Origin: a phage
DNA: 64,000 nt
Reading direction: 5' to 3' (one strand)
Assembly: GCA_010671865.1 (NCBI GenBank)
Contig: GCA_010671865.1_4083.1
Of this stretch, positions 56,657-64,000 are shown one piece after another. The notes under the pieces were generated by a model that was given only the letters and a program-made list of their open reading frames with translations, searched no databases and was not told the DNA's origin. Each line of letters starts with the position of its first letter. Within the stretch, counting starts at the first letter, position 1. The translations under genes and the position numbers were made by a program.

Positions 56657-57835
56657 ATGTTACCTTTTGCAAGAATGGTTAAGTACGGAAATATTGTACC
56701 TGGTGTACCAACACCAAAAGATTTCTTTTTGGATGTATCATCCGGCAAACCTACTATGTTGATGCTTTTGGATAACGGCGAAGTATGGGGTTGTAGTAAT
56801 GATGGACAACTATTAGGTTTAAACACTACCGCGTCAGCATACGGTAAGCCATACTTTGTTATGGAAAATGTTAAGTTAATGTTCGCGTCAGTGTGGGGGA
56901 CATTACTTATCACTAACGATAATAAAGTGAAGTACACTGGTAGACAAACCATGTTTAATGGTTCATCTAATTATTGGAGTACTTTTCAAGATTTTACAAC
57001 GAAGTACACGACTGTTGGTATTGACATAAGTACTATAGAAAAAGTTGGATTCAATACTGGTACATTATTCCTACGCACAACTAATGGTGATTTATGGGGT
57101 CATGGAAATAACGCTAATGGTTATTTCGGAAAAGGAAATACCGTGGCGAATTACACACCAACCAAGATCAAGACTAATACATTAGATTTTTGGTTAACTA
57201 ATGGGAATGCAATTGTACAAACTGGCCCTAAAGAATTCTATGCTACTGGTGATAATTATTATTATCAAATGGGTGTTACAACTACTGGCAATATAACAAC
57301 ATGGACACAGATTTTTAAGGACGCTACTGATGATCCTGAGTTTGAATATAATGCAATGCGAACAAGTCAAGCAACATTAATACTTTACGGTAAAGGAACT
57401 ACATTCTACGCAAGTGGGAGAAACTATATGAGTTCATGGGGTGTAGCTGGTGCACCAGTGAATGTTAATACCACAATATATAAAGGAACGTTACCATTTG
57501 TACCCGGTGATTTAACATATTTTTATGCTGGTCGAGAACAAGCATATTGGACTAACTTAATCATTGATACTAATGGAGTTCTGTACATAGCTGGAACAAA
57601 AGATGGGGGTGGTAGTTCAAATGCACCTACATTTGAAGTATTACCGACCCCAAGTAGTGCAGTTGGGTTCAAATGTGGCACAGCAACACGTTCTTATGCT
57701 ATAATGGATTGTACTGGCAATCAATTTATGTACGCACGTGGTACAGCTTTGTCAGACCCTGCTGGCTTTACACCAATGAGTACCCCATTAAATCATACAT
57801 GGACACACATAACAGATTTTAAATTTAACCGATAA
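56657..57835 (+). CDS. RCC1-like repeat (beta-propeller) protein with conserved N-terminal leader, paralog 1
   Basis: track ORF 56639..57835 trimmed to MLPFARMVKYGNIVPG (AGGAGGG RBS); repeated GxNxxGQxG-type Gly-rich motifs. Confidence 0.6.
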   Translation: MLPFARMVKYGNIVPGVPTPKDFFLDVSSGKPTMLMLLDNGEVWGCSNDGQLLGLNTTASAYGKPYFVMENVKLMFASVWGTLLITNDNKVKYTGRQTMFNGSSNYWSTFQDFTTKYTTVGIDISTIEKVGFNTGTLFLRTTNGDLWGHGNNANGYFGKGNTVANYTPTKIKTNTLDFWLTNGNAIVQTGPKEFYATGDNYYYQMGVTTTGNITTWTQIFKDATDDPEFEYNAMRTSQATLILYGKGTTFYASGRNYMSSWGVAGAPVNVNTTIYKGTLPFVPGDLTYFYAGREQAYWTNLIIDTNGVLYIAGTKDGGGSSNAPTFEVLPTPSSAVGFKCGTATRSYAIMDCTGNQFMYARGTALSDPAGFTPMSTPLNHTWTHITDFKFNR

Positions 57836-57841
57836 TATTAT

Positions 57842-57870
57842 GCCAGTACTTGATACTGGCATTTCTTTTT
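57842..57870 (+). terminator. intrinsic terminator between RCC1-like paralogs
   Basis: GCCAGTActtgaTACTGGC hairpin then ATTTCTTTTTG. Confidence 0.6.
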
Positions 57871-57906
57871 GTATTAAATATAGTATAATGAATAAAGGAG
57901 GGAAAT
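57871..57906 (+). promoter_or_regulatory. conserved promoter-like/RBS cassette
   Basis: GTATTAAATATAGTATAATGAATAAAGGAGGGAAAT immediately before ATG; -10 TATAAT, weak -35. Confidence 0.45.
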
Positions 57907-59109
57907 ATGTTACCTTTTGGAAGAATGGTTAAGTACGCAAATATTGCACCAGGTCCAGAACCTGTAGAGTTCTCAGATGTTTTACAACAACATTATACAA
58001 ACTGTATGTATCTCCATAACCCAACTAATACTTTATATGGTTATGGTAGTAATAACTTTTATCAATTTGGTCTTGGGAATTCAGCAGCAGTTTCGTCATT
58101 TACAGTACTTGCAAGGAACTGTGCAGCCTTTTGGCTTGGTGTTCAAGGTTCATTGATGATTGATTTGGATAATAAAATATACTACACTGGGTCGGTTGGT
58201 GCATTTTCTGATTATGGAGATGCAACACCTGTTAATGGTTATTTGACAACATGGACTGATGTTACTGTTGCATTTAATAAAATAGGTGTTATGGCTAATA
58301 TGATCAAGAGTGTATATATAGGTGAAAGTACTAGAATATTATTAACCGATGGTAGAGTAATTGCGTGTGGAAGAAATACTAATGGTGAATGTGGCTCTGG
58401 GAATAAAAATTCCATCCCTACACTCACAGTTATGACTAATATGGGTGAAGTTACACATATGGCATGTTCATTACAAGGAACGCACTATATCAAATCAAAT
58501 AAAGATGCATGGTTTTGTGGTAAGGATAACTTTGGTGAAAGTGGATGTGGTGGTAGTTCTGTTGTATATTTGAACAAATTCGTGATTAGTAATGTAGAAC
58601 ATATTAGTACTACATACGATGTTACTTGGTGGTTTACTACTGGTGGGTCTGTATATTATAGCGGGGCTAACAGTTCTGGACAAGCTGGTAATGGTACGAC
58701 TACATCGGTAAATCAGCTAACACCAATTAGGAACACATCGGTCACGGTTGATGTAAGTAAGTACAGTACTTTTATTTGTCCAAGTAATATGGGAAATGCA
58801 TCAATTGGTGCACCTATGGCACAATACGCACCATATGTTAGAAGTAGTGGTGCTAACTCATATGGTCAAGAAGGTAATGGAACTAATACATTAGTTAGAA
58901 CTTGGAATATTTTTAATCTTAGTGCAATAAGTGGTGGTTATGACAATGTTCTTATGGCATCTAAAGATTGGAGCAGAACCATAATAATTACTAAAGATTA
59001 TAAATTATATGCATGTGGTGGCTGGAATGGAAATGGTGGTAGATTGCCAGATGGCACTTATAGTATTACTACACTAACATTAATGCCATCGCAGTTATGG
59101 CAACAATAG
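57907..59109 (+). CDS. RCC1-like repeat (beta-propeller) protein, paralog 2
   Basis: 400-aa ORF; N-term MLPFGRMVKYANIAPG; repeats such as YGYGSNNFYQFGLGN, CGRNTNGECGSGN, SGANSSGQAGNGT, SGANSYGQEGNGT. Confidence 0.65.
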   Translation: MLPFGRMVKYANIAPGPEPVEFSDVLQQHYTNCMYLHNPTNTLYGYGSNNFYQFGLGNSAAVSSFTVLARNCAAFWLGVQGSLMIDLDNKIYYTGSVGAFSDYGDATPVNGYLTTWTDVTVAFNKIGVMANMIKSVYIGESTRILLTDGRVIACGRNTNGECGSGNKNSIPTLTVMTNMGEVTHMACSLQGTHYIKSNKDAWFCGKDNFGESGCGGSSVVYLNKFVISNVEHISTTYDVTWWFTTGGSVYYSGANSSGQAGNGTTTSVNQLTPIRNTSVTVDVSKYSTFICPSNMGNASIGAPMAQYAPYVRSSGANSYGQEGNGTNTLVRTWNIFNLSAISGGYDNVLMASKDWSRTIIITKDYKLYACGGWNGNGGRLPDGTYSITTLTLMPSQLWQQ

Positions 59110-59117
59110 GAGGGAAT

Positions 59118-62693: not shown

Positions 62694-62728
62694 TATTAAA
62701 TATAGTATAATGAATAAAGGAGGAATTT

Positions 62729-63916
62729 ATGTTACCTTTTGCAAGAATGATGAATTATGGGAATATTGCCCCAGTACCACTTCAAATTAAGAAAATAATC
62801 CCAACTGATTTAGATGTTGTGGTTCTGTATACGGATGGTCAACTATATGCACGTGGGAATAATAGTTTTGGGAAATTCGGTAGAGGAAACAACACTGCAT
62901 TAAAATCATGGACATTAATTAGAGAAAACGTTAACGATTGCTGGCTTACACAAGGAACTTTATTAGTAAAAGACAATGACTCAAATTATTATTACTGTGG
63001 ATATGGTAGTCATATTGGTTTATCAACTAGTACTACTACGTTTTTAAGTTATAACCAATATATTCAAAATTTGTACACACAAAGTTCAAGTACTTCAATT
63101 AAACAGATGTATGGAGGTACTACGTGGTTTACTTTCTTAATGGACAATAATACAATATGGAGTACAGGGTGGAACAGTGCTAGACAATTCGCCGATGGAA
63201 CGGGAACTACTTATGAAATAACCGATGGTTCATTTGTAAAAGCGGTCACACCTAATGTTGATATTGCACAAATACAGTCAACAAATAACTGTGTATTGTT
63301 GTTTGATAAACAAAATAATTTATATATTGGTGGTGTTACATCCGGTATAAGTTCCGCGACTACATGGACTTCATATAATCAATATACTTTATATCAACCA
63401 AATACAACATACACAAAAACGTTACAATACACAGGATGCTCAACTGGTGCAGTAAGTGCTTTAGTTGAAAATCCAAATACAGGAGCACGTCAGTTCCTTG
63501 TCGGTGGGTTAGCTAATAATGGGGCATGGGGAAATAACACTACATCTAGCTCTGTTAATGGAGTTTTAGGAAATAACAGTACGACGTTACCACCCGGTAC
63601 TTTGTATTCAATTCATACTGGATACCCACCACAATCTAGTATACTAATTACGAGTACTGGTGTATATGCAACTGGTTTAAATGCCAGTAGTTATGCTGGT
63701 TCATTGGGTATTGGTACTAGTGCAACTGTTGGTAAGTTTACTGCATGTCCAATGCCTACACAAATAACATATTCTATGTATGATAAAATAAAAATATATA
63801 GAGGTTCATATCGTACATTTCTAACTGATATGAAAAATATATATTCAACCGGAACTTATGATGATGGTGGTCCTAGTACAACTAGATATGTACTAGATAC
63901 ACCCCGACAATTATAA
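62729..63916 (+). CDS. RCC1-like repeat (beta-propeller) protein, paralog 6
   Basis: 395-aa ORF; N-term MLPFARMMNYGNIAPV. Confidence 0.65.
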   Translation: MLPFARMMNYGNIAPVPLQIKKIIPTDLDVVVLYTDGQLYARGNNSFGKFGRGNNTALKSWTLIRENVNDCWLTQGTLLVKDNDSNYYYCGYGSHIGLSTSTTTFLSYNQYIQNLYTQSSSTSIKQMYGGTTWFTFLMDNNTIWSTGWNSARQFADGTGTTYEITDGSFVKAVTPNVDIAQIQSTNNCVLLFDKQNNLYIGGVTSGISSATTWTSYNQYTLYQPNTTYTKTLQYTGCSTGAVSALVENPNTGARQFLVGGLANNGAWGNNTTSSSVNGVLGNNSTTLPPGTLYSIHTGYPPQSSILITSTGVYATGLNASSYAGSLGIGTSATVGKFTACPMPTQITYSMYDKIKIYRGSYRTFLTDMKNIYSTGTYDDGGPSTTRYVLDTPRQL

Positions 63917-63923
63917 TATAATA

Positions 63924-63953
63924 GCCAGTACTTTGTACTGGCTTTCTTATTTG
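63924..63953 (+). terminator. intrinsic terminator between RCC1-like paralogs
   Basis: GCCAGTACtttGTACTGGC hairpin then TTTCTTATTTG; approximate. Confidence 0.55.
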
Positions 63954-63987
63954 TATTAAATATAGTATAATGAATAAAGGAGGAATT

Positions 63988-64000
63988 ATGTTACCTTTTG
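63988..64000 (+). CDS. RCC1-like paralog 7 (first 4 codons only; runs off window end)
   Basis: identical cassette then ATGTTACCTTTTG (MLPF...). Confidence 0.5.

Follow-up and report, generated by a model that had tools for sequence, protein, structure and literature searches.

A tandem array of genes sharing an N-terminal peptide

The 64,000-nt stretch of phage DNA analyzed here (contig GCA_010671865.1_4083.1 of GenBank assembly GCA_010671865.1, hereafter the window) ends in a tandem array of paralogous genes whose products begin with a shared short peptide, hereafter the tag, which probably serves to attach them to the virion. Six plus-strand open reading frames (ORFs) of the array are complete, with starts at 56657, 57907, 59118, 60298, 61509 and 62729. 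Paralog 1 (56657..57835, 392 aa, with the tag in codons 1-16 at 56657-56704), recognized as an RCC1-like beta-propeller by Pfam RCC1 and WD40_RLD matches, is followed by the RCC1-like paralogs 2 (57907..59109, 400 aa, tag 57907-57954), 3 (59118..60227, 369 aa, tag 59118-59165), 4 (60298..61437, 379 aa, tag 60298-60345), 5 (61509..62657, 382 aa, tag 61509-61556) and 6 (62729..63916, 395 aa, tag 62729-62776). The first 13 nt of a seventh plus-strand paralog (ATGTTACCTTTTG, 63988..64000) are interrupted by the end of the window.

All six complete paralogs begin M-L-P-F-x-R-M-x-x-Y-[GA]-N-I-[AV]-P, while their overall amino acid identity is 20-23%. The original prediction, made from the letters of the window, had described an invariant 16-residue peptide on otherwise divergent paralogs. 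The divergence of the bodies was borne out by these identities, but the invariance was overstated, since only 10 of the 16 positions (M1, L2, P3, F4, R6, M7, Y10, N12, I13 and P15) are the same in all six copies and the accompanying regular expression misses two of them, at 61509 (V at position 5, MLPFVRM) and 57907 (A at position 11, YANI). An alignment of the six proteins contained 17 invariant columns, 10 of which lie within the first 15 residues. When the window was scanned with a degenerate DNA pattern for MLPF[AG]RM that tolerated one mismatch, six matches were obtained versus 0.02 expected from shuffles, and the tag motif was not found elsewhere in the 64 kb in any frame.

A tblastn search with paralog 1 matched 48 phage records, all of them jumbo myoviruses of ~310-386 kb, with Escherichia phage SHEFM2K as the best match (M2K_0250, 97% amino acid identity), followed by EJP2, SP27, slurp01, 121Q, phAPEC6 and Salmonella phage Munch. 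Because only jumbo myoviruses were matched and SHEFM2K was the closest, the phage is assigned on these matches as an Asteriusvirus-like member of the 'Rak2-like' jumbo coliphage group. The counterpart array in SHEFM2K is a plus-strand island of 12-13 genes (85291-99853) between two minus-strand blocks of small genes, and the flanks of the array are small non-structural genes. The window thus holds the first six array genes and 13 nt of the seventh; the leftmost SHEFM2K paralog (85291-86400) is not in it.

Distribution of the tag among jumbo phages

The composition of the tag was examined in a census of 89 tagged genes from nine phages, namely the phage of the window, SHEFM2K, 121Q, phAPEC6, WPEC5, SD-15_S21, Munch, Erwinia phage Hallingskeid and Pectobacterium phage CBB. 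Across these genes the core widens to M-[LI]-P-F-x-[RK]-[MIL]-x-x-Y-[GA]-N, usually continued by [IV]-[AV]-P-x-P. P3 and F4 were present in all 89 sequences, M1 and Y10 in 88, N12 in 87, R6 in 85 and G11 in 82, with L or I at position 2 and M, I or L at position 7. The tag occurs in lineage-specific variants (MLPFxRM, MIPFxRIL and MLPFPRL). All of the Munch copies read MIPFxRIL, and WPEC5 carries seven tags of the form MLPFVRMFDYGN, seven of the MLPFARMVKYGN type and one intermediate (MLPFVRMVKYGN).

When 1.84 billion representative proteins were searched with a profile built from the six window tags (E <= 0.001), 36 were returned, 34 of which were judged genuine, with matches that begin at residue 1 or, where the start had been mis-called, shortly after it. 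Pfam analysis of 30 of the profile matches identified 28 as RCC1-like, one as Kelch and one as phrog_6011-like. Additionally, tblastn with a 22-aa tag sequence matched 61 phage records, exclusively jumbo phages of 310-386 kb, from Escherichia, Salmonella, Erwinia, Yersinia, Cronobacter, Serratia, Pectobacterium, Klebsiella (fENko-Kae01) and Xanthomonas. The 15 tag sites in phAPEC6 were all explained by the array of that phage. No tag match was obtained by tblastn for the Alcyoneusvirus phages phiK64-1 and RaK2; RaK2 is in the searched collection, and a diverged tag in it could have escaped detection. A scan of IMG/VR for relatives returned the 121Q contig alone, and a protein homolog search with a 40-aa tag alignment returned short mis-called ORFs only.

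An unrelated 597-aa metagenomic protein (P0028) contains repeated internal segments of the form CAEL[IVM]YAN[VI]APGK[IL]G[TA]IT (five by eye, four matched stretches in the search) that are similar to the tag's latter part (Y-[GA]-N-I-A-P-G-K). This likeness, the sole match of its kind that is not N-terminal, is probably due to chance. No description of the tag was found in the phAPEC6, CBB, Sharanji, Eneladusvirus and fEgEco12 papers or by motif search, and it appears not to have been reported previously.

The tag precedes unrelated folds

In the window an RCC1-like propeller lies behind every tag. All six bodies match Pfam RCC1, RCC1_2 or the RCC1-like domain (PF00415, PF13540, PF25390), with RCC1 repeat matches above the family cut-offs in five paralogs and a marginal match in paralog 6 (RCC1_2, 22.4 against a cut-off of 22). 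An AlphaFold2 model of paralog 3, built from a 15-sequence alignment, is a seven-bladed propeller with a mean predicted local distance difference test score (pLDDT) of 90.1 and a predicted template modeling (TM) score of 0.88. The nearest structures by Foldseek were UVR8, the RCC1-like domains of RPGR, HERC1 and HERC2, and RCC1 (E = 1e-22; TM score about 0.8, and 0.76-0.80 to UVR8); this search of the PDB matched cellular RCC1-like domains only, with no phage structure among them. Residues 1-13 of the model lack secondary structure and score below 50 in pLDDT; the strands start at residue 20, and the last of them spans residues 359-364. According to the model, the tag is therefore a disordered N-terminal extension outside the folded propeller.

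In related jumbo-phage arrays, the tag is found ahead of other folds as well, so that it heads four unrelated folds in total: the RCC1 propeller, the Kelch propeller, a concanavalin A (ConA)-like lectin fold and a glycine-rich domain. Tagged Kelch propellers are Hallingskeid CDS0073, CBB gp427 and CBB gp429, and tagged ConA-like proteins are CBB gp428 and gp431, with Laminin_G_3 matches of 47.9 and 47.8 bits (cut-off 27.6). The tagged members of phrog_6011, a 'virion structural protein' family related to ConA-like proteins, are Munch_540, Hallingskeid CDS0082 and CBB gp430. ConA-like Pfam matches of Munch_540 and CDS0082 were sub-threshold only, and for this reason their fold assignment rests on their CBB relatives gp428 and gp431. 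Glycine-rich tagged proteins are Munch_544 (Gly_rich_2, 25.6 bits against a cut-off of 24.3) and an ORF of 121Q (L003:7973). Sequence searches of the PDB with the phrog_6011 and glycine-rich proteins gave no matches.

The phrog_6011 body is also found in unrelated Vequintavirinae phages of ~150 kb (CR3 gp255 and 4MG gp182). In these the alignment starts at residue 16-21, before the same 'LDID' body start, and the N-termini differ from the tag (MNEMLMLGQAK... and MEEMLLVGGGK..., respectively). Judging from these alignments, the body is portable and the N-terminal peptide tracks the phage lineage. The two Vequintavirinae proteins (L011 3956-4606 and L012 3965-4615) share an N-terminus of their own, M-[NE]-E-M-L-[ML]-[LV]-G, which may be another lineage-specific tag.

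The tagged proteins are near neutral, with isoelectric points of 5.1-9.0 and net charges of -4 to +4, unlike DNA-condensing proteins. Database annotations of such genes as 'regulator of chromosome condensation' or 'DNA condensation protein' were carried over from the fold.

Detection of tagged proteins in virions

Evidence that tagged proteins are part of the particle came from published virion proteomes of related phages. The phAPEC6 virion proteome obtained by electrospray ionization tandem mass spectrometry (MS) includes eight array products, gp003, 005, 006, 007, 009, 010, 549 and 551 (PMC7247149). In CBB, the virion proteome includes CBB_536, 537, 548, 549, 551, 552 and 553 (PMC5259590), which amounts to seven of the nine proteins of two tagged clusters, each detected through 2-8 peptides with a coverage of up to 51%. 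Seven of the nine proteins in these clusters were translated here and the tag was present on all seven. The sole RCC1-like protein of GAP32, gp001, was likewise detected in virions (PMC5259590), and four of the six CBB structural proteins without GAP32 homologs are tagged.

Two of the CBB virion peptides, LFEYANVIIPPNYK (residues 7-20) and YANVIVEYATK (residues 10-20), derive from two tagged proteins, and each is preceded by the expected tryptic R or K. Mature CBB particles therefore still carry the tag, as shown by virion peptides that span its residues 7-20. The original prediction had proposed mass spectrometry to learn whether the peptide is kept or cleaved, and had listed a processing signal among the possible roles; over these residues it is kept, which disfavors the processing option.

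Selection and recombination at the 5' ends of the genes

Conservation had originally been placed at the level of the peptide rather than attributed to simple DNA homogenization, on the basis of synonymous changes between copies (TAC/TAT, GGA/GGG, ATT/ATC, GCA/GCC and CCT/CCA). These changes are real but are all confined to codons 10-15, where the proportion of synonymous differences (pS) among the window copies is 0.62 and the ratio of nonsynonymous to synonymous proportions (pN/pS) is 0.10. Codons 1-7 (ATG TTA CCT TTT GNA AGA ATG) are identical DNA in the window except for the middle base of codon 5, with pS = 0, and they hardly vary among the 54 tabulated Asteriusvirus copies (6 from the window and 48 from sister phages), the exceptions being one TTC codon and one ATT at codon 7. 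Given this near-identity of codons 1-7 at the DNA level, the argument from synonymous changes applies, within the window, to the second half of the tag only. Identity of the N-terminal DNA between copies, named beforehand as an outcome that would refute the idea, was very nearly found for codons 1-7 and was not found for codons 10-15.

Outside this genus, Munch, Hallingskeid and CBB encode the same residues through different codons (CCA/CCG/CCT, AGG/AGA, ATA/ATC/ATT), with core pN/pS values of 0.04-0.24 and synonymous sites near saturation. The ratio was 0.04 in Munch and 0.12 in Hallingskeid (pS 0.55-0.64); between clades it was 0.17 (pS 0.60). These codon patterns point clearly to purifying selection on the tag peptide, which is evident in Munch and Hallingskeid.

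The tag is at the same time a site of exchange. Tag variants are lineage-specific and shared among paralogs regardless of orthology, and in orthologs with ~1% nucleotide divergence in the body, 8-23% of the first 48 nt differ and the upstream DNA is unrelated. For the gene at 56657, 11 of 48 tag nt differ from SHEFM2K versus 16 of 1128 in the body (Fisher p = 1.3e-9); for that at 59118, the comparison with 121Q gave 5 of 48 versus 12 of 1059 (p = 5e-4). Window paralog 1 and the 121Q ortholog of paralog 3 have identical tag DNA. As the tag diverges while the ortholog bodies are nearly identical, the 5' gene end was interpreted as a recombination or gene-conversion junction. By these comparisons, recombination or gene conversion and peptide-level selection both operate on the tag. 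The contrast drawn originally between peptide and DNA is therefore only half right: the low cross-genus pN/pS is in its favor, and the nearly identical first 21 nt in Asteriusvirus and the mosaic variants are against it.

The junction at which the window (56555-56704) and SHEFM2K (L001, 10719-12050) differ by the leftmost paralog falls inside the tag, and the SHEFM2K ortholog of paralog 1 is 98% identical versus 11 differences in the first 48 nt. The missing leftmost paralog looks like a deletion or insertion by tag-to-tag recombination. In sister phages some array members are pseudogenized or truncated to ORFs of 52-74 aa and still keep the tag, e.g., MLPFGRIITSSKKNIQPS; examples are found at L001 19336-19515 and 24232-24456, L003 11225 and 14894, and L004 14262. 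On this evidence, array turnover involves decay as well as duplication.

Intergenic cassette and neighboring genes

A terminator-like plus-strand hairpin (GCCAGTAC-loop-GTACTGGC followed by a T-run) was located after paralog 1 at 57840..57862 by a terminator scan and an upstream alignment, and equivalent plus-strand hairpins lie at 60234-60252, 61444-61462, 62664-62682 and 63923-63943. Their GC-rich 8-bp stem (GCCAGTAC/GTACTGGC) is constant and the loops differ (TTGA, AGA, ACT, TTGA and TTT). The terminator scan found 9 versus 3.4 expected, several of the intergenic hairpins also score as terminators on the minus strand, and terminators are annotated at equivalent places in Munch.

Reading the sequence directly, the first hairpin is followed on the plus strand by a promoter-like box, TTAAATATAGTATAAT (57874..57889), and then by a Shine-Dalgarno sequence, AAAGGAGG. 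Further plus-strand copies of TTAAATATAGTATAAT are found at 60266-60281, 61476-61491, 62696-62711 and 63956-63971, and a degenerate plus-strand copy (TAAATATGATATAAT) stands before paralog 1 at 56626-56640. The 16-mer box has five occurrences, all inside the array, versus 0.71 expected. A sigma-70 promoter scan showed no enrichment in the array (29 found versus 38.9 expected), and the AT-rich box is for that reason called 'promoter-like' only. Its confinement to the array suggests that a separate type of promoter may serve the array genes.

The full cassette (hairpin, TTAAATATAGTATAAT box and AAGGAGG Shine-Dalgarno) precedes four of the six genes and the seventh, and in four of the six window genes the 70 nt ahead of the gene are conserved too. 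Paralog 1 has the degenerate cassette only, and paralog 3, which starts 9 nt after the paralog 2 stop, has no upstream cassette. The tag is equally conserved with a full, a degenerate or no cassette, and in Munch many of the genes overlap their upstream neighbor and keep it. Conservation of the tag is separable from the cassette because genes that lack a cassette or are translationally coupled retain the tag.

Directly upstream of the array, a second tandem paralog family occupies the minus strand at 52155-56554. It comprises ~20 ORFs of 59-81 aa with a shared start, x-H-K-E-[YF]-Y, and a shared hydrophobic C-terminus of two sub-types (...L[IL]IYRY or ...VLKLISI), and the run is broken by a 219-aa ORF at 53862-54521. 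These ORFs are hypothetical in SHEFM2K, some belong to phrog_11711, and an equivalent block is present in WPEC5. Farther upstream, 367-25552 is a dense minus-strand run of ~50 ORFs of 100-220 aa with stop and start codons that often overlap. A transfer RNA scan of the whole window found none.

Proposed function of the tag

Altogether, these observations suggest, with a probability that we put at roughly 60%, that the N-terminal peptide is a modular, retained virion-association (docking) tag. In the proposed mechanism the tag would be a disordered extension ahead of a folded ligand-binding domain and would bind one common site on a virion protein, possibly by adding a beta-strand to its partner through the alternating hydrophobics L2-F4-x-V8-Y10. 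It would stay attached in the mature particle, and the phage would thereby load interchangeable, fast-evolving binding modules, with a presumed role in adhesion, onto the virion. The array changes by duplication, loss and recombination, and the near-identical 5' gene ends and the terminator-promoter-Shine-Dalgarno cassette would serve as a homology block for rearrangement. The shared targeting or anchoring signal of the original prediction is in this respect well supported by the four folds, the disordered position, the virion MS, the retention and the purifying selection, although the support is indirect.

Several observations weigh against this interpretation. The virion MS data all come from the relatives phAPEC6, CBB and GAP32, and they report presence in the particle, which would hold for an interior as well as for an exterior location. 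The RCC1 proteins of phAPEC6 were scarce in virion MS (1-5 peptides, 3-17% coverage), and the same preparation also held RecA-like, SSB and PhoH-like proteins, so that some co-purification is possible. The CBB tag peptides begin after R6, and the retention evidence covers residues 7-20. An inner body was seen in phAPEC6, and its authors proposed the RCC1-like proteins for it. Additionally, the array sits outside the main structural gene module, and the near-identical first 21 nt in Asteriusvirus could also be explained by a nucleotide constraint on translation initiation.

Among the other explanations, capsid targeting in the sense of phage T4 is fairly unlikely. Here the tag would bind the prohead scaffolding core, and the proteins would end up within the head, perhaps as part of the inner body, and be ejected with the DNA as effectors or anti-defense proteins. 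The T4-like head genes of Rak2-like phages (in phAPEC6, gp227c, named as scaffold of the prohead core and as protease, and gp226c, scaffolding) would be compatible with it, as would the phAPEC6 inner body, the placement of the array, with a promoter-like box for each gene, among non-structural genes, and the scarcity of tagged proteins in phAPEC6 virions. It fits poorly with a tag that is retained in mature CBB virions, is dissimilar to T4 MKTYQEFIAE and has no conserved Glu-containing cleavage motif downstream. The cargo also argues otherwise, as propellers, ConA-like lectins and glycine-rich domains are folds characteristic of modules that bind at surfaces, the charge of the tagged proteins is close to neutral and not basic, and a rigid 40 kDa propeller would need unfolding to pass the tail tube. 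An improbable alternative is that the tag is read by a chaperone or assembly factor, a modifying enzyme or a protease (e.g., a phage ClpP) that governs folding, modification or turnover. A disordered N-terminal aromatic/hydrophobic motif does resemble degrons and chaperone-binding motifs, and the CBB virion proteome includes a ClpP homolog (CBB_104); however, virions accumulate the tagged proteins, which still bear the tag, and the data point to no particular enzyme.

Conservation as a by-product of DNA processes, whether gene conversion of a 5' cassette or a constraint on translation initiation, and with no role for the protein, is very improbable. The absence of synonymous differences in codons 1-7 of the window copies, virtually repeated in the 54 Asteriusvirus copies, the conserved upstream 70 nt before four of the six genes and the mosaic of tag variants between orthologs would be expected from such processes. 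The cross-genus codon analysis largely refutes a purely DNA-level origin, as Munch, Hallingskeid and CBB specify the same residues by different codons at a core pN/pS of 0.04-0.24, and the tag is kept in genes that have no cassette or that overlap or are coupled, on four unrelated folds and in several genera. Finally, many beta-propellers, RCC1 included, close their ring with an N-terminal strand, and the tag could be the 'velcro' strand that closes the last blade. We give this hardly any credence, since the tag also precedes the non-propeller ConA-like and glycine-rich domains, and it was rejected by the AlphaFold2 model, in which residues 1-13 are unstructured with a pLDDT below 50.

If the peptide is a docking tag, a location of the tagged proteins outside the particle, e.g., on the capsid or tail 'hairs' of phAPEC6 and CBB, is somewhat favored over an internal one. 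An external site is preferred because the cargo folds are typical ligand or glycan binders, because the tagged proteins are near neutral and not basic, because the tag is unprocessed although these phages encode a T4-like prohead protease, and because phAPEC6 and CBB both bear capsid and tail 'hairs' and four of the six CBB structural proteins without GAP32 homologs are tagged. A broader version, in which the tag would be a universal 'plug' that displays a combinatorial and quickly shuffled library of lectin-like and propeller adhesins on capsid and tail hairs across a jumbo-phage clade (Asteriusvirus, Mimasvirus, Eneladusvirus-like and Munch-like phages), is possible but doubtful. If true, it would explain what the hairs carry and why 7-16 paralogs are kept, and it would provide a 12-residue handle for putting arbitrary cargo on jumbo-phage particles.

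The docking interpretation has further consequences. The 'regulator of chromosome condensation' or 'DNA condensation protein' genes in dozens of jumbo genomes appear to encode virion-associated binding modules, and very large phages would carry a changeable repertoire of binding domains by means of one short peptide. With respect to array evolution, a 12-residue core appears to be under purifying selection while recombination at the same place shuffles, adds and deletes cassettes. The tag may also offer a handle on the make-up of the capsid and tail 'hairs' and the inner body in phAPEC6, 121Q and CBB. Should the tag on its own be enough to bring a protein into the particle, jumbo phages could be decorated or loaded with it as a compact tool, in the way that the T4 capsid-targeting sequence (CTS) has served for T4.

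Comparison with known systems

On present comparisons, the tag is analogous to the T4 CTS and to tailspike docking peptides and is a member of neither group. The T4 CTS is an N-terminal peptide of ~10 residues on the internal proteins IPI, IPII, IPIII and Alt; T-even phages are polymorphic in their internal proteins (PMC3012670). The tag resembles it as a short N-terminal peptide on otherwise unrelated, fast-evolving virion proteins, in phages with T4-like head-assembly genes. The T4 CTS has the consensus MKTYQEFIAE and is removed by the gp21 prohead protease. In contrast, the jumbo-phage tag has an unrelated consensus (MLPFxRMxxYGN), is retained and lacks a conserved cleavage motif, and its cargo consists of near-neutral propellers and lectin-like domains of 215-400 aa, as opposed to small basic proteins in T4. 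The early comparison of the tag to capsid-targeting peptides is therefore apt for the logic of a short N-terminal tag and does not extend to sequence, cleavage or cargo.

Conserved N-terminal docking peptides are also shared by secondary tailspikes of K1E/K1-5/SP6, KP32, KP34, Menlow and phiK64-1/RaK2, with lengths of 7-11 residues in K1-5 and SP6 (PMC6872550), and those of anchor-branch systems have been validated experimentally (PMC13352976). Like the tag, anchor-branch docking peptides are 7-12 residues or longer, lineage-specific, placed on divergent distal domains and retained in the particle, and the likeness includes a hot spot of module exchange and, if the tag docks as proposed, a docking site shared by several binding proteins. 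The sequences are unrelated (e.g., to MALxxLV), and the cargo of the anchor-branch peptides is trimeric tailspikes or fibers, often depolymerases, encoded in the tail module, whereas that of the jumbo phages is predicted single-domain propellers or lectin-like proteins whose genes form a separate array with at most about 16 copies. Anchor-branch peptides dock on a T4gp10-like branching domain, and no candidate partner was present within the window. With regard to the cargo itself, the seven-bladed propeller body is like that of UVR8, RCC1 and the HERC2 RCC1-like domain; unlike cellular RCC1, the tagged proteins are not basic and are virion components, nothing observed points to Ran guanine nucleotide exchange or chromatin functions, and the names that refer to chromosome or DNA condensation have been transferred to them from the fold.

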